A stretch of DNA of 64,000 nucleotides, taken from NCBI GenBank assembly GCA_018433765.1, contig JAHDQO010000006.1, positions 247,034 through 311,033 of the forward strand, in the 5' to 3' direction. Below are positions 1-41,825 of this stretch, piece by piece. This stretch comes from Tissierellales bacterium (GTDB taxonomy: Bacteria > Bacillota > Clostridia > Tissierellales > Sedimentibacteraceae). Position numbers and translations under genes: made by a program. The notes beneath the pieces are model-generated. The model saw only the letters and a list, made by a program, of their open reading frames with translations. It ran no database searches and was not told the origin of the DNA. Every line of letters starts with the position of its first letter. Position 1 is the first letter of the stretch.

Positions 1-993
1 AACCATGAGCAGGCTGAAATTATAAAGATGATTTTTGATTTATATGTCAATAAAGGTATGGGTGATACTAAAATATCTAAATACCTAGAAGAAAATAATA
101 TTCTTAATAAGAACGGTAAAGTTAAATGGGATAAAACGACTATAAGAAAAATAATTCAAAATCCTGTTTATATAGGTAAGGTTACTTGGGGAAAGAGAGA
201 ATATAAATATAATGAAAATGGTAAAAGATCATCTTCGTTTTTAGATAAAAGTGAGTGGAAAATATTCGAAGGTAAACATGAAGCTATTGTTGATGAAGAG
301 CTGTTTAAGAAAGCACAGTTATTAACTAAAGAAAGATATCAGCCTCATCTTAAAAAAGCTAGAGTTTTGAGAAATCCACTATCTTATTTTCTTAAATGCA
401 GCAGCTGCGGAGCAACTATGTCTATCAGGACATGTAAAGGTAAAAAAGATTCTATACGGTGTTATAAAGGGTGTGGAACTAAGAGCAGTTATTTGTATTT
501 AGTTGAAGATCGTTTGATAAAACTTTTATATAAAAGGCTAACAGAGTTAGAATACAATTTTACATATAATAAGTCTGAGTTTTCTAGTCATGAAATTAAT
601 GTTATTAATGATACTATAATTTGTAATGAAAAGGAACTGAAAAAAATCCTTAATCAAAAGGATAAATTATTTGATTTGCTTGAGCAGGGTATTTATGATA
701 ATTTGACTTTTCTTGAAAGGATGAATAAAATTTCTAACAGAATTGAAGCAGTAGAAAAAACTATATCGGAAGCTCGAAAGAAACAGGAACAGTTTTTTAT
801 TAATAAAGAGAATATTGAAAACAAAATACCTATGATTAAAAGTTTTAAAGATTATATTGATAATGTCTATTGGAACAATACTCCTGAAGAGAAAAATGTT
901 TTTCTTAGAGAAATAATTAAGTATGCAAATTATACTAAGTATCCTGATGCTGACATGGATGATTTTGAACTCCAGCTATTCCTTAAGATTTAG
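1..993 (+). CDS. Large serine recombinase, C-terminal portion (5' end lies outside the window)
   Basis: Reading frame is open from the window edge to the stop at 991-993. C-terminal recombinase/zinc-ribbon region with a Cys cluster (CSSCGATMSIRTCKGKKDSIRCYKGCG) followed by coiled-coil-like sequence, as in large serine recombinases (SpoIVCA/TnpX type). Confidence 0.7.
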   Translation, partial: NHEQAEIIKMIFDLYVNKGMGDTKISKYLEENNILNKNGKVKWDKTTIRKIIQNPVYIGKVTWGKREYKYNENGKRSSSFLDKSEWKIFEGKHEAIVDEELFKKAQLLTKERYQPHLKKARVLRNPLSYFLKCSSCGATMSIRTCKGKKDSIRCYKGCGTKSSYLYLVEDRLIKLLYKRLTELEYNFTYNKSEFSSHEINVINDTIICNEKELKKILNQKDKLFDLLEQGIYDNLTFLERMNKISNRIEAVEKTISEARKKQEQFFINKENIENKIPMIKSFKDYIDNVYWNNTPEEKNVFLREIIKYANYTKYPDADMDDFELQLFLKI

Positions 994-999
994 CGGTTT

Positions 1000-1404
1000 T
1001 TGTTATGGTGGTATGATGTAGCTGTCATTGGAATGAGAGCTGTTGCTACAGTTGTTATGAATAGAGTAAGAGTACCTAACGGTGAATATCATCGAGTTGG
1101 CCAAGGAGATATAAGAAAGGTAATTTATCAGCCGGGTCAATTTGACTGTGTTATGAGTGTAATTGGCGGACAGCCAAATTATCAAACAATTTGGAGCAAT
1201 CCTCCTGACCAAGTTCATTATGATATTGCTGATTGGGCTTTAGCAGGTAACAGGCTGTACAATATTGGAAACAGTTTATGGTATTTCAATCCCTTTAGAC
1301 CTGATTGTCCGCCCGAATTTCCACCTAATGGTTCAGGTTATTTCCTTGTGCGACTTAGAGAACACTGTTTTTACAATCCTACAGCATTATATCCTCAAAC
1401 ATAA
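1000..1404 (+). CDS. CwlJ/SleB-family spore cortex-lytic hydrolase domain (Hydrolase_2), apparently lacking its N-terminal ~25 aa; in frame with and immediately after the recombinase stop
   Basis: Motifs VVMNRV, IYQPGQF, LWYFNP and HCFYNPT match CwlJ/SleB catalytic domains. No ATG is present, and the conserved N-terminal ARxxxxEA(R/E)GE segment is missing. The ORF begins 7 nt after the recombinase stop. Confidence 0.6.
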   Translation: MLWWYDVAVIGMRAVATVVMNRVRVPNGEYHRVGQGDIRKVIYQPGQFDCVMSVIGGQPNYQTIWSNPPDQVHYDIADWALAGNRLYNIGNSLWYFNPFRPDCPPEFPPNGSGYFLVRLREHCFYNPTALYPQT

Positions 1405-1443
1405 AAAAGAAATTTAGCTAAATGTTAAATGGAAGGTGATTTT

Positions 1444-1818
1444 ATGAAAATATTTAAAATGTTAGATGATAATAATTTATACCCAATGTCTTATAACAAT
1501 GCTCTTTCTGATATTCCTATTAGTCGTCCTCCTTGTAATCAGCCAATTGTTACTGATGATCCAAATTATTTACAAGGATATTTGAACAGTCTTATTGATA
1601 AATTTATAAAAGTAGAATTTCTTATAGGAACAAATTTATTTATTGATAAGGAAGGTATACTTAAACAAGTAGGTGTTGACTATATTGTTTTAGAAGAAAC
1701 TCAAACTGGAAATAATATAATAGCTGATTTGTATTCAATAAAATTTGTAGATGTACCTGAATCACCAGATATGTTTACTTTTAATCCAAATAGTTATAGA
1801 AGTCTTTATGAGAGGTGA
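1444..1818 (+). CDS. Small sporulation-associated protein, possibly GerQ/YwdL-like (paralog 1)
   Basis: RBS GGAAGGTGA precedes the ATG. The gene sits downstream of the cwlJ-like gene, as gerQ does in Bacillus. Conserved C-terminal block VG(V/I)DY(I/V)(V/I)LEE..TGN.I(I/V).D(L/M)YSIKFVDV. Confidence 0.4.
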   Translation: MKIFKMLDDNNLYPMSYNNALSDIPISRPPCNQPIVTDDPNYLQGYLNSLIDKFIKVEFLIGTNLFIDKEGILKQVGVDYIVLEETQTGNNIIADLYSIKFVDVPESPDMFTFNPNSYRSLYER

Positions 1819-1823
1819 TTTTA

Positions 1824-2134
1824 TGAGAATTTTTGATATAAACCAAAATTATTATCCAGAATCAAATTACAATGCACTCTCAGATACTCCTAATAGTTAT
1901 CCTCCTTGCAATCAACCAATAGTTACTGATGATCCAAATTATTTACAAGGATATTTAAATACTATAATTGGCAGTTATATAAAAGTTTCATATCTTCTTG
2001 GAACAAACTTATTTCTAGATAAGCAAGGAATACTTAAGGAAGTTGGTATTGATTATGTTATTTTAGAAGAACCTCAAACTGGAAATCAAATAGTTAGCGA
2101 TATGTATTCAATAAAGTTTGTAGATGTATATTAA
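1824..2134 (+). CDS. Tandem paralog of the preceding small protein (paralog 2)
   Basis: About 65% identical to the 1444-1818 product with the same RBS context (GAGAGGTGA + ATG). The 5' part of the track ORF overlaps paralog 1, so the true start is taken as the ATG at 1824. Confidence 0.4.
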
Positions 2135-2140
2135 GAAAAC

Positions 2141-2176
2141 AGGGTAACCTCTTTTAGGATTACCCTGCTTTTTTAT
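2141..2176. terminator. Rho-independent terminator, probably bidirectional
   Basis: Hairpin cagggtaacctcttttaggattaccctg followed by TTTTTTAT, lying between convergent genes. Confidence 0.6.
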
Positions 2177-2185
2177 AATTTTTTA

Positions 2186-3352
2186 TTATTTTGAAATACC
2201 AGTTTCTTTAGCAGCTTTTTTTACTGCTTCAGCAACTCTTAAAGATACATCTTTATTTAGTGCTTTTGGTATAATACAATCTACTGAAAGTTCTTGTTCT
2301 GATACTGTATTTGCTATTGCGTATGCAGCTGCCATTTTCATTTCTTCGTTTATATCTGACGCTCTTACATCTAAAGCTCCTCTAAATATACCAGGAAATG
2401 CAAGAACATTATTTATTTGATTTGGAAAATCAGATCTTCCTGTACCTACTATATATGCTCCTCCTGCTTTTGCTTCTTCAGGCATTATTTCAGGTGTTGG
2501 ATTTGCCATTGGAAAAACTATCGGTTTCTCACTCATTGAAGCTATCATTTCTTTTGATACTATATTAGGTGCTGACACACCAATAAATATATCTTTGTTT
2601 TTTAATGCGTCTGTTAGTGCTCCAGTCTCATTATATATATTTGTTATTTGTGCCATTTCTTTTTTGCTATTATTTAGCTCTCGATTTTTATTGATTATTC
2701 CTTTTCTATCACAAATCACAATGTTTTTTATTCCCATTTTTAATAATAGTTTAGCTATTGCCATTCCTGCTGCACCTGCACCATTAATTACTGCTTCTAC
2801 TTCTTCTATTCTTTTACCTGCTACTTTTAGAGCATTTATTATTGCTGCTGCAGTTACTACTGCTGTCCCATGCTGATCATCATGAAATATTGGGATATTC
2901 ATTTCTTTTTTTAATCTTTCTTCTATTTCAAAGCATCTTGGTGCAGCAATGTCTTCAAGATTAATACCTCCAAAAACAGGTTCTAATATTTTAACTGTTC
3001 TTACTATTTCATCTACATCTTTTGAATCTATACATATTGGAAAAGCGTCAACATCTCCAAATGTTTTAAACAGCACAGCTTTTCCTTCCATAACAGGAAG
3101 AGCTGCATGTGCACCTATATCTCCTAAGCCTAATACAGCTGTTCCATCTGTTACTACAGCTACCATATTTGATTTTGAAGTATATTCATATACCTTATTT
3201 ATATCTTTATGAATTTCTCTACACGGCTGAGCAACACCTGGAGTGTAAGCTATTGATAAATCATCCTTAGTTTCTACTTTCACTTTACTTTTTACTTCTA
3301 TTTTTCCTTTATATTTTTTGTGCATTTCTAAAGCAAGTTTGTTGTAATCCAT
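2186..3352 (-). CDS. Malic enzyme family protein, probably a CitM-type soluble oxaloacetate decarboxylase
   Basis: Malic enzyme N-terminal and NAD-binding domains are present. Start is taken at MDYNKL, which has the RBS GGAGGAA. Last gene of the citrate lyase operon, as citM is in Lactococcus and Enterococcus. Confidence 0.8.
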   Translation of the reverse strand: MDYNKLALEMHKKYKGKIEVKSKVKVETKDDLSIAYTPGVAQPCREIHKDINKVYEYTSKSNMVAVVTDGTAVLGLGDIGAHAALPVMEGKAVLFKTFGDVDAFPICIDSKDVDEIVRTVKILEPVFGGINLEDIAAPRCFEIEERLKKEMNIPIFHDDQHGTAVVTAAAIINALKVAGKRIEEVEAVINGAGAAGMAIAKLLLKMGIKNIVICDRKGIINKNRELNNSKKEMAQITNIYNETGALTDALKNKDIFIGVSAPNIVSKEMIASMSEKPIVFPMANPTPEIMPEEAKAGGAYIVGTGRSDFPNQINNVLAFPGIFRGALDVRASDINEEMKMAAAYAIANTVSEQELSVDCIIPKALNKDVSLRVAEAVKKAAKETGISK

Positions 3353-4232
3353 AATAATTTCCTCCACTATTTAGTATTTTACTATTTTCTAAAAAATATA
3401 TCATAATAACTGCAGCAAGCATATCTGCGCAACCACCAGGACTTATATTTTTTTCATTAAATTCTTTATTCATCTTTAAAATAAAATTCATACCTTGTTG
3501 AGTTGTAACATTTCCTAACATCAGAGCTTTGTTAGCCATTTTTTTTAAATATTCTGAACCTTCTAATCCTCTGCGCCATAATACATTTGTATCATCTACT
3601 TCAGCCATAAGTTCAATCAAAACTCCTATTAAAGCATTGTTAAACCCTATACCATTTGATAGATATTCTTTAAATTTAACATACCCCAAATTACATATTG
3701 ATGGTATTCCTTCTTCTACTTCTCCTCTTATTCCTTTTTTACCGTATTTTTTATAAATAACCTCTCCATGAGAAAGTTTGTTACCCTTTATAGTTTTTAA
3801 TTCTTTATTGACTATATCCTTAGTAAATATCTTTATTTGTTTTGAAATTTTTTCACTGCTTATTGTTTCTCTTTGGGAAACAAGTATCCCTGCGGATGCA
3901 ACTATAAAACCTAATAAAAAAAGCTGTCCTTTATGTGTATTTATGCCCTTTGTTGCTTTAAACATTTTTTTTTCACCTTTTATACCAATATTTCTTAACT
4001 GGCTAAGTATTTCATGAGGCGGTTTTTCATTATTCAAATAACCAATTTCAAAGCATTTAACAAAAGTAGAATTTAGTGCTATAGAACTGTCTATAAATGT
4101 TTTTATGTTCATATCTTTGTGAGCTCCGCTATCGATTTTATCAACAAGACCAGGTTTTGGTGAAACATATACTTCAAGTATTTGAGAAATTAATGATATT
4201 TTTTTTATTTCTTCTTTATATAACTCTAGCAT
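3309..4232 (-). CDS. citG: Triphosphoribosyl-dephospho-CoA synthase
   Basis: CitG/MdcB family similarity, in the context of a citrate lyase operon. Confidence 0.8.
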   Translation of the reverse strand: MLELYKEEIKKISLISQILEVYVSPKPGLVDKIDSGAHKDMNIKTFIDSSIALNSTFVKCFEIGYLNNEKPPHEILSQLRNIGIKGEKKMFKATKGINTHKGQLFLLGFIVASAGILVSQRETISSEKISKQIKIFTKDIVNKELKTIKGNKLSHGEVIYKKYGKKGIRGEVEEGIPSICNLGYVKFKEYLSNGIGFNNALIGVLIELMAEVDDTNVLWRRGLEGSEYLKKMANKALMLGNVTTQQGMNFILKMNKEFNEKNISPGGCADMLAAVIMIYFLENSKILNSGGNYYGLQQTCFRNAQKI

Positions 4233-4746
4233 TTTTCACCTCAAAATATTCAGATATTATGCTGTATATTTTTTTTAGTATTTGTTCTTGTCTATGTGTT
4301 TTATTAACTGTGCAGTAATGAGCTGTGTTGTTGCACAAATAGCATTTTCTAGTTTTGAAACCAACTTCTTGTCTGCTAATATTTTTACAATCTATATTCA
4401 TAACATCTATATCAGCTATTCTTCCTAAGTCATTGTTTTCTTCAAATTTTACAGCTATTTGTTTTACAGATATTGGTGATATGTCTACTACCATATATGC
4501 TTCTGGTCCATCCCAAGTAACCTGTTTCTCATTGTACAAAATCTTAACATGCTTTGTTAATAGTATTTCTTTGAAGAGCTCATATATTTCTTTAAAAGTT
4601 CTTTCCAGTATTTTATCGTTCTTTTCTTTGCCTGGAATATTTAAAGTAATTGTTACTACTGGTTTATGGTACCTTTTAACTAAATTTATTCTTTTATTCC
4701 ATCTTTCTTCTCTAGCCCTCAATATTTTGCTTTGCATACTAATCAT
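4216..4746 (-). CDS. citX: Apo-citrate lyase phosphoribosyl-dephospho-CoA transferase (holo-ACP synthase)
   Basis: CitX family size and sequence, positioned between citF and citG. Confidence 0.75.
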   Translation of the reverse strand: MISMQSKILRAREERWNKRINLVKRYHKPVVTITLNIPGKEKNDKILERTFKEIYELFKEILLTKHVKILYNEKQVTWDGPEAYMVVDISPISVKQIAVKFEENNDLGRIADIDVMNIDCKNISRQEVGFKTRKCYLCNNTAHYCTVNKTHRQEQILKKIYSIISEYFEVKNARVI

Positions 4747-4762
4747 TCCTTATTGTTAGTAA

Positions 4763-6172
4763 CTAACGTTTATTTACTGCTTTTATTGTATCAATTATAT
4801 TTCCGTCTCTATAAATTACTTCACCTACTATTTTATGTGATAACCTTGCTCTTTTAGGTTTTCCTGTTATCTTTTGCGCTATGTTTTGCATTTCTTGTAT
4901 ATCTAATACTTTTAACCCTTCGTCTATAAGCTTGTTTTTTAATTCTTTTCTATTAGGATTTACTGCAATTCCTCTCTCTGTTACTAATACGTCTATTGTA
5001 TTACCCGGTGTTGATATAGTAGTTACTTTATCAACTATTATTGGTAATCTTGCTCTTATTAGTGGCGTTACAATTATACATAATTTTGATCCTGCTGCTG
5101 TGTCACTATGTCCTCCAGAACCTCCAATTATCATACCATTAGAATCTGTATGAACATTAACATTAAAATTAGTATCAATTTCTGTAGCTCCTAAAATTAC
5201 AATATCTAAATTATCTACTACACAACTTTTAGAGTTAGGATTTGCATAAAGTGAAGCTGATATTTCAATATGATTTGGATTTTCTTTTATAGATTTAACT
5301 GCATCAAGGTCAAAGCATTGTACATCCATTAATGTTTTAAAAAATCCTTCATTTAAAAAATCCACAAAGTATTTTGTTATGCCTCCCATTCCAAAGCTTC
5401 CTTGGATATTCTTTTCTAGCATAACTTTCTTCAAATAATAAGCTGCAGCTAATGAAGCTCCTCCTGCACCTGTTTGAAAAGAAAAGCCATTTTTTAATAA
5501 GCCTGACTTTTCTATTACACTTGCTGCATTCTTTGCTATTGTTAAACCTACAGGATCTCTAGTTATTTTTGTTGTACCTGATACTATTTTTGCTGAATCT
5601 CCAATTTTGCTAACTGGAACTACATAATCAACTTTAGTTTCATCTATTGAAATGTAAGGATTAGGATAATCAACTAGATAGTCTGTTACTGCTACTACAC
5701 TCTTAGCATGTTCAACATCTGAAAATGCATATCCTAATGAGCCGCAGGCTGATGAACCTAAAACTCCATTTATATTTCCCATTTTATCAGATGAAGGTGC
5801 TGCCACAAATGCAACATCAACTTTTATTTCTCCATCTTCCATAGCTTTTGGTCTGCCTCCATGGCTTCTAAACTTAACAGGTTGTTCCATCTCTCCAAGA
5901 CTTATAAATTCAGCAACAGAACCGCTCATATAATTTGTATCTATTGATGTAACTACACCTTTCTTGATGTATTCTATTAATGGTTCATGAATTGGAAATA
6001 CTGCACTTGGAGCAATTTTAATGTCTCTAAATCCGCATTCATCTAATTGAGAAATAACATTGTTAAGTACATAATCACCATTTCTCATATGATGATGAAA
6101 TGAAATAGTCATTCCATTTTTAAGTCCGCAAAGTTTAAATACTTCTTTAAACGTTTTTACTATCTTGCTCAT
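4763..6172 (-). CDS. citF: Citrate lyase alpha subunit (citrate CoA-transferase)
   Basis: CitF family similarity along the full length. Confidence 0.9.
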   Translation of the reverse strand: MSKIVKTFKEVFKLCGLKNGMTISFHHHMRNGDYVLNNVISQLDECGFRDIKIAPSAVFPIHEPLIEYIKKGVVTSIDTNYMSGSVAEFISLGEMEQPVKFRSHGGRPKAMEDGEIKVDVAFVAAPSSDKMGNINGVLGSSACGSLGYAFSDVEHAKSVVAVTDYLVDYPNPYISIDETKVDYVVPVSKIGDSAKIVSGTTKITRDPVGLTIAKNAASVIEKSGLLKNGFSFQTGAGGASLAAAYYLKKVMLEKNIQGSFGMGGITKYFVDFLNEGFFKTLMDVQCFDLDAVKSIKENPNHIEISASLYANPNSKSCVVDNLDIVILGATEIDTNFNVNVHTDSNGMIIGGSGGHSDTAAGSKLCIIVTPLIRARLPIIVDKVTTISTPGNTIDVLVTERGIAVNPNRKELKNKLIDEGLKVLDIQEMQNIAQKITGKPKRARLSHKIVGEVIYRDGNIIDTIKAVNKR

Positions 6173-7048
6173 TTACATTACTCCTCTGCTTTTATTCAAA
6201 ACCAATAATACTTTTCTTGCTCTATTTACTATTGGTGCATCAATCATTTTACCCTCTAATGAAACAACACCTTTTCCCTCTTCTTCAGCCTTTTCTATTG
6301 CATCTATAACTTTATGAGCGTAGATTATTTCTTCTTTGCTAGGCATAAAAATTTTATTTATAATATCTACATGACGAGGTGAAATAGATGCTTTTCCATC
6401 AAAACCAATTTCTTTTGCAAATATTGTATCTTTTACTAATCCTTCATCATCATCCACGTCTGTAAATGGCGTATCTATAGCTAATATTTTAGCAGCTTTT
6501 GCTGCAGTAACTACTCTTGACCTAGAATACAATATTTCTTTACCTTCCTTTGTTCTTTTTGCGCCTAAATCAGCTGTTAAATCTTCAGCACCTAAGAATA
6601 ATCCTTCTATTCTTTCACTTGATTTTGCAATCTGAAAAGCATTTTCTATTCCTAATGCAGTTTCTAATAAAGGCATTATTGTAATTTGCTTTTCAATATT
6701 GTACTTCTTTTCTAATTCTTCTATATATTTTTCAGCTTCTTTCACAGATTTAGGAGATTCAGTTTTTGGTAGTAATATCGAATTTATTTTACCTTTCATA
6801 ACTTCTTCTAGATCGTTTTTCCAATATTTTGTAGAAATATCGTTAATTCTAACAAACACTTCTGTATTTTCAAAATCTAATGTTTTTAATCCATTTCTCA
6901 CTAAAATTCTCGCTGCATCTTTTTGCTTTTCAGACACTGCATCTTCCAAATCAAAAATTACACAATCACTTCCAAATACAATACTATTCATTAACATACT
7001 GGGATTATTTCCTGGAATAAACAGCATTGTCCTCTTCAATGAAATCAT
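6173..7048 (-). CDS. citE: Citrate lyase beta subunit (citryl-CoA lyase)
   Basis: HpcH/CitE family; abuts citF and overlaps citD by 4 nt. Confidence 0.9.
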   Translation of the reverse strand: MISLKRTMLFIPGNNPSMLMNSIVFGSDCVIFDLEDAVSEKQKDAARILVRNGLKTLDFENTEVFVRINDISTKYWKNDLEEVMKGKINSILLPKTESPKSVKEAEKYIEELEKKYNIEKQITIMPLLETALGIENAFQIAKSSERIEGLFLGAEDLTADLGAKRTKEGKEILYSRSRVVTAAKAAKILAIDTPFTDVDDDEGLVKDTIFAKEIGFDGKASISPRHVDIINKIFMPSKEEIIYAHKVIDAIEKAEEEGKGVVSLEGKMIDAPIVNRARKVLLVLNKSRGVM

Positions 7049-7317
7049 AGTATTTCTCCTTTTCCTCTTATTATTGCAGCTTCCATTCTCGCTTTAATAG
7101 TACACTCTAGTGCACCTCTGTCATTAACTTTTATCTTTGCTTGTTTAACTTCTAATTCGTCACAAACATCTTGTACAGCTTTTTTTATTTCTTCATTAAA
7201 TTGATCATACACTATACTTTCTATAATTATTTCTAATTTGTTTTCAAGTGGTTCTATAGTAATCATTACATCATTAGATTCAAGAGAACCTACTATTGCA
7301 ATATTTTTTATTTTCAA
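7045..7317 (-). CDS. citD: Citrate lyase acyl carrier protein (gamma subunit)
   Basis: 90 aa with a CitD-like sequence. Confidence 0.85.
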   Translation of the reverse strand: MKIKNIAIVGSLESNDVMITIEPLENKLEIIIESIVYDQFNEEIKKAVQDVCDELEVKQAKIKVNDRGALECTIKARMEAAIIRGKGEIL

Positions 7318-16992: not shown

Positions 16993-17009
16993 TATTATTC
17001 TTCTCCTCA

Positions 17010-17118
17010 TCTCTCAAAGTATTCTTTGCTGGAATTAGCACCTTGCAGAATTTCTGTAGGTTGCCGAAGTTTCATAGGGCCAGTCCCTCCACCTCTCTGG
17101 ATAAGAAGTACATTATTC
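17010..17118 (-). promoter_or_regulatory. SAM-I (S-box) riboswitch controlling metY-metA
   Basis: The minus strand reads cttcttatccagagaggtggagggactggccctatgaaacttcggcaacc...gtgctaattccagcaaaga, matching the S-box consensus. It sits in the metY leader. Confidence 0.85.
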
Positions 17119-32389: not shown

Positions 32390-32508
32390 CTTGAAACCTC
32401 CCTTTAATGTGACAACACAAATTAATTAATTCAGTTGATTTTTTATAAAATAAAAAACCCCTGAATTCTCCAGAGGCTGTATTACGAATGGAATAATATA
32501 TTTTATTA

Positions 32509-32620
32509 TCATCCTCTCCCATCCAGACTTTACTGTCGGTACCGGAATTTCACCGGTTCAGCCATTAAGGCTCGCGGACTTTACCGCCGGTAGGGAATTT
32601 CACCCTGCCCTGAAGATATT
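32509..32620 (-). promoter_or_regulatory. FMN riboswitch (RFN element) with terminator hairpin at about 32452-32480
   Basis: The minus strand reads cttcagggcagggtgaaattccctaccggcggtaaagtccgcgagcc...ggtgaaattccggtaccgacagtaaagtctggatgggagagg, which matches the RFN consensus. Confidence 0.85.
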
Positions 32621-32683
32621 TTATAACATTATAACATCTCTATTTAGTTTGTCAAGGTTAAAAATTTAACAAAACTATAAAGA

Positions 32684-41475: not shown

Positions 41476-41624
41476 AATTATAATTAAAAAGAGACCACTT
41501 TTTCAGGGTCTCTATAAAAAAATCAAAATTTAAAATTTATAATAATGAATTGTTAATTAAAAAGCCTGAAGAATAATTCTTCAGGCAATATAACAAAATC
41601 ACAAAAAAATCTTTGATTTTAAAC

Positions 41625-41725
41625 TTCTTTCATCCAGACTCTACTGTCGGCTCTGGAATTACACCAGATCAACCTTTCGGCTAGCGGGCTTTACCGCCGG
41701 TCGGGAATTACACCCTGCCCTGAAG
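41625..41725 (-). promoter_or_regulatory. FMN riboswitch (RFN element) of the rib operon; terminator at 41562-41588
   Basis: The minus strand reads cttcagggcagggtgtaattcccgaccggcggtaaagcccgctagcc...ggtgtaattccagagccgacagtagagtctggatgaaag, followed by the hairpin gcctgaagaattattcttcaggc and a U-run. Confidence 0.85.
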
Positions 41726-41825
41726 TTATACAATATTCATTTTTCATCACTTTATCATATTACAATAAACCTGTCAAGTATATTAGAATTTATTTTCTCA
41801 TAAAAATAAAAGTAAAAACTAGAAA

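Follow-up and report, generated by a model that had tools for sequence, protein, structure and literature searches.

A putative large serine recombinase element at codon 24 of the germination gene cwlJ in a Tissierellales bacterium

At the left edge of a 64,000-nucleotide (nt) stretch of the genome of a Tissierellales bacterium (assembly GCA_018433765.1, contig JAHDQO010000006.1, positions 247,034 to 311,033; hereafter the window), the gene of a large serine recombinase (LSR) abuts cwlJ, the gene of a cortex-lytic germination enzyme, which here lacks its 5' end. The explanation that we favour, with a probability of roughly 0.55, is that positions 1-1029 are the right end of an LSR-inserted element lying in codon 24 of cwlJ, which would split the gene reversibly, excision in the mother cell restoring the operon. 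The reading of the site as the junction of an intervening element, taken by itself, is well supported by comparison with related sequences, and the junction is, judged by its layout, an LSR attachment site of the attR type, in which P arm, the dinucleotide GG and gene follow one another. Four features make up this junction (aa, amino acids):

1-993, plus strand: 3' two-thirds of the LSR gene, residues ~175-504 of 504 aa, stop codon TAG at 991-993
994-1029, plus strand: element-side P arm of attR, with GGTGGTATGA at 1007-1016 and then a 13-nt variable spacer at 1017-1029
1030-1031, plus strand: putative crossover dinucleotide GG, the first two bases of the cwlJ Gly codon 24
1030-1404, plus strand: 3' segment of cwlJ, codons 24-147 and the stop codon of a 147-aa CwlJ-type hydrolase with a Hydrolase_2 match

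The recombinase and the right junction

The recombinase open reading frame (ORF) is open throughout 1-990 and runs off the left edge of the window, which encodes its C-terminal 330 residues. This part matches the Pfam family Recombinase (PF07508, E 9e-27), and Zn_ribbon_recom (PF13408) stays below threshold on it, at 21.8 bits against a cutoff of 25.3 bits. The missing part lies on a Logan contig (L084, sequencing run SRR13787005), which agrees with the window without a mismatch over 1578 nt and adds 1012 nt upstream. There the gene occupies 491-2005, is identical to the window's and encodes a protein of 504 aa (P0130) in which a Resolvase domain (PF00239), encoded outside the window, accompanies the Recombinase domain (PF07508), the domain architecture of an LSR. 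Such a recombinase would be expected to integrate by attP x attB and to excise by attL x attR with the help of a directionality factor. It is the last gene of the element, its stop codon lying 36 nt before the crossover, at the element edge. Directly 5' of it on L084, in the same direction, is the gene of an ImmA/IrrE-type metalloprotease (Peptidase_M78, E 2e-12; phrog_87), a neighbour typical of the regulatory end of a prophage or an integrative and conjugative element (ICE). Between the two genes (L084 281-490) runs an unusually G+C-rich leader of 200 nt in a genome of 28.6% G+C; it has no Rfam match, and its folding energy is unexceptional (z -1.4).

The junction was compared with five others, reached through short CwlJ homologs (contigs L001, L002 and L087) or through recombinase homologs (L088, the complete genome of Crassaminicella profunda, CP082326.1, and L095, from Maledivibacter halophilus M1). 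Their recombinases are 81% (L001), 59% (L002 and L087), 54% (L088) and 50% (L095) identical to that of the window. All six junctions, with the window and L084 counted as one, share a single layout: the recombinase stop codon, 16-37 nt, GGTGGTATGA, 13 variable nt, GG, and cwlJ from codon 24 onward. Within the window the motif GGTGGTATGA occurs once. M. halophilus and Wukongibacter have its reverse complement, TCATACCACC, 13 nt past the GG of their left junctions. The position of the crossover was derived from the symmetry of the att sites. Joining the outer arms gives an attP of GGTGGTATGA-N13-GG-N13-TCATACCACC for M. halophilus and of GGGGTATGA-N13-GG-N13-TCATACCCC for the metagenome contig L085, in keeping with the short att sites of LSRs, and in both GG is the centre of symmetry. 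In the window, GG is also the point at which homology to intact cwlJ starts.

The original prediction had also remarked that the two genes share a reading frame. This is incidental: the offset between recombinase and cwlJ frames is 0, 0, 1, 2, 1 and 0 in the six junctions, and since it varies the shared frame is best regarded as coincidence. The same prediction had the cwlJ-like ORF begin 7 nt after the recombinase stop codon with no ATG. A TTG start is indeed available at 1000, but 994-1029 belong to the P arm of the element, and an in-frame ATG exists at 1033.

The truncated cwlJ gene

Translation of 994-1401 matches Hydrolase_2 (PF07486, E 4e-19) over profile positions 5-100 of 100. Together with the recombinase match and the 23 missing codons, this bears out the proposal that a recombinase abuts an N-terminally truncated cwlJ/sleB-like gene. 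A search of 5.8 billion proteins returned 1280 cwlJ homologs; the best 120 all carry PF07486, and nearly all of these 120 are 147 aa long. Intact homologs begin with MAYSDRELLARIIKCEAGGEGxNGMKAVATVVMNRV. Homology in the window starts at the G-M of this sequence, at nt 1030, and 23 codons are absent; the 12 codons before nt 1030 (RFLLWWYDVAVI) match nothing in the CwlJ family. From there on the segment is 74-80% identical to the closest intact 147-aa clostridial homologs, is free of frameshifts and stop codons, and keeps all 54 invariant columns of the alignment.

The missing residues comprise the conserved RELLARIIKCEAGGEG block and the predicted catalytic glutamate. In a weak match, the family profile places Glu16 (KCE16AGGE) opposite the first Glu in the GESRGE motif of the SleB structure 4F55; this match was made by the profile only, a phmmer search of the PDB with an intact homolog giving nothing. 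We take the first Glu of GESRGE to be Glu157 of Bacillus cereus SleB, a numbering that follows from its spacing to Phe196 and Tyr231-Tyr232-Phe233 in the SleB sequence. Glu157 is the catalytic residue of B. cereus SleB (PMC11533991), and models of CwlJ place the same glutamate at the same position (PMC12331253). The conserved catalytic Glu of the N-terminal (A/G)E(A/S)xGE motif is absent from the window ORF and present in the rejoined ORFs of relatives. Because the predicted catalytic Glu is missing, the window's cwlJ product would be inactive even if it were made, and the window appears to carry a gene fragment and not a functional member of the CwlJ/SleB family.

Also missing from the segment are promoter, ribosome-binding site, start codon and the codon for Glu16. 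Neither the in-frame TTG at 1000 nor the ATG at 1033 has a Shine-Dalgarno sequence, and both gerQ-like genes downstream have one. The prediction could have failed had the short ORF proved to be a normal gene of related genomes. Close homologs are instead 147 aa long and have their own start; short ones are few (clusters of 120-124 aa) and, wherever the context is visible, all stand directly behind a related recombinase. A tblastn search for the missing N-terminus within the 64-kb window gave nothing, and no empty cwlJ site from the same species was found.

These observations also decide on the proposal that nothing is interrupted, the ORF of 124-134 aa being either a true CwlJ isoform of short length with a start of its own or a fusion to the recombinase made by read-through. 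In its favour are the in-frame TTG (1000) and ATG (1033) and the fact that the window and L001 have recombinase and ORF in one frame. Against it stand the missing ribosome-binding site, the varying frame relation, the loss of the RELLARIIKCEAGGEG block and of the predicted catalytic Glu, and the length of 147 aa of intact homologs. With neither start preceded by a Shine-Dalgarno sequence and with frame offsets that vary, both the short isoform and the fusion are effectively refuted.

Both ends of the element in related genomes

From the geometry of the right junction the pattern of a left junction was predicted: the codons for CEAGGEG, 7 nt, GG, 13 nt and TCATACC (GARGCNGGNGGNGARGG-N7-GG-N13-TCATACC). 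Scanning 185,579 species genomes with this pattern gave six matches. In every one of them (6/6) a 5' fragment of cwlJ runs into the mirrored arm TCATACC(A/C/G/T)(A/C)C, and four of the six share contigs with recombinase homologs. In M. halophilus (contig FUZT01000004.1) the two GG lie at 83,004 and 29,899 and delimit an element of 53,105 bp; joined at GG, the halves yield an intact 147-aa CwlJ that matches the family consensus. At its far end lie genes for an XhlA-like protein, a holin and a DNA methylase, and the element looks like a prophage. On the host side of the left junction (L090 3327-3521, minus strand), just upstream of the cwlJ promoter, there is a fragment of 64 aa similar to the N-terminal end of recombinases of this clade, possibly left over from an element that occupied the locus earlier.

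L085, a metagenome contig of 687 kb (the locus is also found on L086), holds a recombinase 54% identical to the window's together with both cwlJ halves, 5,958 bp apart. Its 5' fragment reads MSFSSRELLARIIKCEAGGEGDTGMK and then passes into element sequence, and the 3' part starts with ...GDNGMKAVATV; joining at GG again gives an intact ORF of 147 aa. The arms GGGGTATGA and TCATACCCC are inverted repeats 28 nt apart, centred on the GG of the Gly24 codon. Beyond the recombinase, this 6-kb element has no PHROG or informative Pfam match. Its recombinase is nevertheless intact, and neither the att sites nor the halves of the gene have been lost; the retention of all of these in so stripped an element argues that the ability to excise is being maintained. 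The element on L087 differs in cargo: at 2385-7294 it encodes an AAA_15/AAA_21 ATPase and an RnlA/RnlB toxin-antitoxin pair and no phage structural genes, a defence-like content.

Thus a coding region interrupted with its halves otherwise intact is seen in the window for the 3' half, and for both halves in M. halophilus and L085. The cwlJ site is occupied in at least 10 other genomes or contigs, and related recombinases, 42-100% identical, use the same GG of cwlJ. This speaks for the recombinase belonging with the cwlJ site, as had been proposed, and not with an unrelated element whose att site lies elsewhere.

Three architectures and an exchange of orientation

Elements at this site come in three architectures. 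In the type seen in the window, the recombinase gene adjoins attR and runs in the same direction as cwlJ. L085 represents a second type, in which it adjoins attL and is antiparallel to cwlJ. The third type, found in metagenome-assembled genomes (MAGs L089, L091 and L092; Oscillospiraceae and Anaerovoracaceae), has the recombinase starting 0.3-0.7 kb inside attL and directed as cwlJ; these recombinases are 42-48% identical to the window's. Read along the recombinase gene, the site of L085 is GGGGTATGA-N13-CC, complementary to the GG of the window. The orientation in which serine integrases integrate is set by the non-palindromic central dinucleotide, as is established for Bxb1 and phiC31. A complementary core coupled with the opposite orientation at the same host site is thus what the polarity mechanism of LSRs predicts.

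Two small conserved ORFs occur in elements at this site. One encodes 39-46 aa (VIYTxKxxEE.KKE.NKLLNxFLRE) and is common to the 53-kb prophage (L090 2842-2976, plus strand), the 6-kb element (L085 9131-9271, minus strand) and the Wukongibacter relic described below (L093 about 3991-4110, minus strand). The M. halophilus copy is preceded by a strong ribosome-binding site, and about 40 nt separate its end from the P' arm. On these sequence features it is a candidate recombination directionality factor. The other, of ~70-83 aa (VWSGPI.DLP...PEGC.NV.IY.DGSR.YD), sits between the left junction and the recombinase, divergent, in the three MAG elements (L089 2121-2369, minus strand; L091 6822-7025, minus strand; L092 6080-6280, plus strand) and is possibly another accessory factor.

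Relatives in other collections and a fossil junction

Searching IMG/VR with the single recombinase protein returned nothing. With an alignment of the recombinases it returned 76 loci of 23-48% identity, none of which has a cwlJ 5' fragment. These relatives seem to use other att sites, since the sequence after the recombinase stop codon differs in all 12 of the loci inspected. Against genome contigs, the recombinase alignment gave 261 pattern matches, none of them confirmed. Matches to the attP pattern in IMG/VR (5) and in JGI metagenomes (19) were dismissed as chance, there being no recombinase or cwlJ relative nearby.

In Wukongibacter sp. M2B1 (CP138200.1; L093 3584-3949, L120 9128-9846) the left junction is a fossil. 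The cwlJ promoter and the first 69 nt of the gene are present there as a copy of 350 bp with 97.4% identity, in which ATA has replaced the start codon. This copy stops precisely at the GG crossover, where the element arm TCATACCACC takes over. Some 14 kb further downstream lie an intact cwlJ of 147 aa and its gerQ-like gene. The DNA in between has no serine recombinase; its genes include an IS256-type transposase and the reverse transcriptase of a group II intron.

Genes downstream of cwlJ and the rest of the window

Three further features complete the cwlJ operon:

1444-1818, plus strand: first cwlJ-associated small gene, 124 aa (P0121), remotely GerQ-like; no Pfam match for this copy
1823-2134, plus strand: second, tandem paralogue, 103 aa, 69% identical to the first; sub-threshold match to Spore_GerQ (E 0.034)
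2132-2180, plus strand: intrinsic terminator closing the operon, between convergent genes

The original prediction had named two tandem gerQ-like genes and a terminator. The tandem arrangement stands, and the family follows clostridial cwlJ in all relatives, with the conserved C-terminus NYLQGYL...GTN.F.D.EG....VG.D..........D.YSIKFV. The likeness to GerQ itself stays below threshold: Spore_GerQ is reached at E<=1 by 4 of 8 family members, with a best E of 0.034, and no NCBIfam GerQ match was obtained for the small genes. Two UniRef entries of the family bear the name 'Spore coat protein GerQ'. The analogy to a cwlJ-gerQ operon is plausible but weak, resting on these sequence similarities. Duplication in tandem is seen in the window, and two copies also occur in a Wukongibacter-related contig (L121); most relatives have one. 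The terminator is confirmed by direct folding, which found a hairpin at 2132-2175 of -18.1 kcal/mol (z -5.1; none of 200 shuffled sequences reached this stability) with CUUUUUU behind it; a consensus terminator scanner gave no call there.

Five of eight loci have the motif AC-N15-17-CATAnnnTA upstream of the 5' fragment or the intact gene, where the expectation for these loci is 0.02 per 260 nt; the eight loci fall into two related groups, so not all are independent. We take this motif to be a sigma-K-type consensus.

Beyond the operon, 2186-7048 (minus strand) contains a malic-enzyme-like ORF and further ORFs, guessed from their translations to be those of citrate lyase; this is ordinary host chromosome with no element genes. 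The host part also carries two FMN riboswitches and one SAM riboswitch (32507-32621, 41618-41731 and 17004-17107, all on the minus strand), each above its Rfam gathering score.

Weighing the explanations

According to the reading that we favour, an LSR would have inserted a prophage- or ICE-like element into codon 24 of cwlJ. In this genome the far (left) end of the element would then hold the promoter and the first 23 codons, which would run into GG, 13 nt and TCATACC. That the 5' segment is at the far end had been foreseen; it is what the relatives with both ends visible display, where the rejoined ORF has 147 aa, and for this genome we infer it. While the element is integrated, the cwlJ 3' segment and the co-transcribed gerQ-like genes would be silent until excision, because their promoter would be on the other side of the element. 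The recombinase and an element-encoded directionality factor would recombine attL with attR at GG, the element would leave as a circle, and the cwlJ-gerQ operon would regain its mother-cell-type promoter. If skin, SPbeta, vfbin, gin and yin are a guide, excision would most likely take place in the terminally differentiating mother cell, with the spore chromosome keeping the element. This proposal draws on the analogy with known elements and on the persistence of the stripped-down 6-kb element.

Several observations weigh against this picture. The left-junction scan of species genomes returned neither this genome nor C. profunda, and searches of IMG/VR and the JGI metagenomes gave neither a free attP nor a circular form. 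Elements at the cwlJ site can simply decay, as the attL copy in Wukongibacter shows. CwlJ is partly redundant with SleB in Bacillus, and a knock-out could be tolerated. Upstream of every recombinase gene examined there is a -10 box of the ordinary type, a perfect TATAAT, and such boxes, like the ImmA-type regulator, fit ordinary prophage or ICE control.

These last points are shared with the chief rival, in which an ordinary temperate phage or ICE uses cwlJ as its attB and knocks out a dispensable germination gene, excision following on induction and having no developmental role. We regard this as a serious rival, if a less probable one. Phages with LSRs often integrate inside ORFs, the M. halophilus element resembles a full prophage with a lysis module, and the L087 element bears defence or toxin-antitoxin cargo. 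What an ordinary prophage would not lead one to expect is that the two halves of the gene are undamaged wherever they were seen, with recombinases ranging from 42 to 100% identity, and that a 6-kb element without recognisable phage genes keeps recombinase, att sites and gene halves. Moreover, according to PMC4191935, PMC5595907 and PMC10747680, the LSR-type elements in sporulation genes that have been studied experimentally excise during sporulation or, for yin in yabG, in a growth-phase-dependent manner.

It is unlikely, in our judgement, that the element is a dead relic, unable to excise after loss of attL, directionality factor or recombinase and leaving the cwlJ 3' segment as a decaying pseudogene. 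The left end in this genome is a predicted one, and the relic junction of Wukongibacter, with its ATA start codon and without a recombinase, would be a precedent. The recombinase ORF of the window element is, however, full length at 504 aa with its Resolvase domain, the cwlJ segment is undamaged with 54 of 54 invariant columns kept, and an identical locus is present in the independent sequencing run SRR13787005.

A bolder proposal goes beyond the excision model that we favour: cwlJ elements could form a widespread domesticated clostridial switch, in which CwlJ of the spore depends on excision in the mother cell, the germ line keeps the element, and bet-hedging or superdormancy results, with the 39-46-aa ORF as a new directionality factor. 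We consider this doubtful. CwlJ is deposited on the spore by the mother cell. Were the proposal true, whether a given spore receives CwlJ, and with it the GerQ-like partners, would hinge on excision in that mother cell, and each spore's competence to germinate would be set by a mobile element. The elements with GG and CC would then amount to an orientation swap of serine integrases made by nature.

Comparison with known systems

The phenomenon as such is established; the new details are the target gene cwlJ, the breadth of hosts and the orientation-swapped pair. Interrupted sporulation genes in the literature searched are sigK, spsM, spoVFB, spoVR, gerE and yabG, and spoVK is an SPbeta-like integration site. 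Table 2 of PMC7192596 and subscription journals aside, the searched literature holds no report of cwlJ or sleB as an interrupted gene. If our reading is correct, the gene of a germination enzyme joins the few sporulation genes known to be interrupted by mobile elements, whose reassembly presumably takes place in the mother cell. One and the same codon is hit by a diverged recombinase clade in several clostridial families, with three architectures and sizes from a 53-kb prophage to a 6-kb minimal element, and this breadth offers a comparative series on how such elements become domesticated. Its predictions are testable in cultivable strains (M. halophilus M1, C. profunda), and the elements provide natural integrase/att pairs with a defined 2-bp core.

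The closest parallel to the window junction is skin, which splits sigK in B. subtilis and Clostridioides difficile: there too the LSR gene (spoIVCA) stands at the element edge upstream of the 3' gene fragment (bioRxiv 10.1101/2022.02.25.481979). In both systems a sporulation gene is split by elements that range from a few kb to about 50 kb and have no shared cargo. The target of skin is a sigma factor, whereas here it is a cortex-lytic germination enzyme with the insertion at codon 24 of 147. The window recombinase is only about 41% identical to the closest phage integrases. SPbeta in spsM (SprA, SprB) resembles the 53-kb M. halophilus element, with its lysis module, as a full-size prophage in a mother-cell spore-envelope gene; likewise the LSR promoter looks constitutive, so that directionality would need a separate small factor. 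It differs in its att site, and no SprB homolog was identified here, the 39-46-aa candidate ORFs being unrelated to SprB.

The elements on L085 (5,958 bp) and L087, which have no recognisable phage genes, recall gin in gerE of B. cereus ATCC 10987 (PMC5595907). However, gin has three recombinases against one here and another target, and these two elements are much smaller. Similar in other respects is yin in yabG of Clostridium botulinum V73, a prophage-like element of a clostridial host with a serine recombinase and an attB conserved across strains (PMC10747680). It was described as unique to one strain, whereas the cwlJ site is occupied in many genera by elements of three architectures. As to the target itself, the Bacillus cwlJ1-gerQ operon likewise combines a single-domain Hydrolase_2 protein of ~140-147 aa, a small gene with a GerQ-like C-terminus and a terminator (PMC12331253), but the clostridial small proteins fall below the Pfam and NCBIfam GerQ thresholds, and in the window the gene is duplicated.

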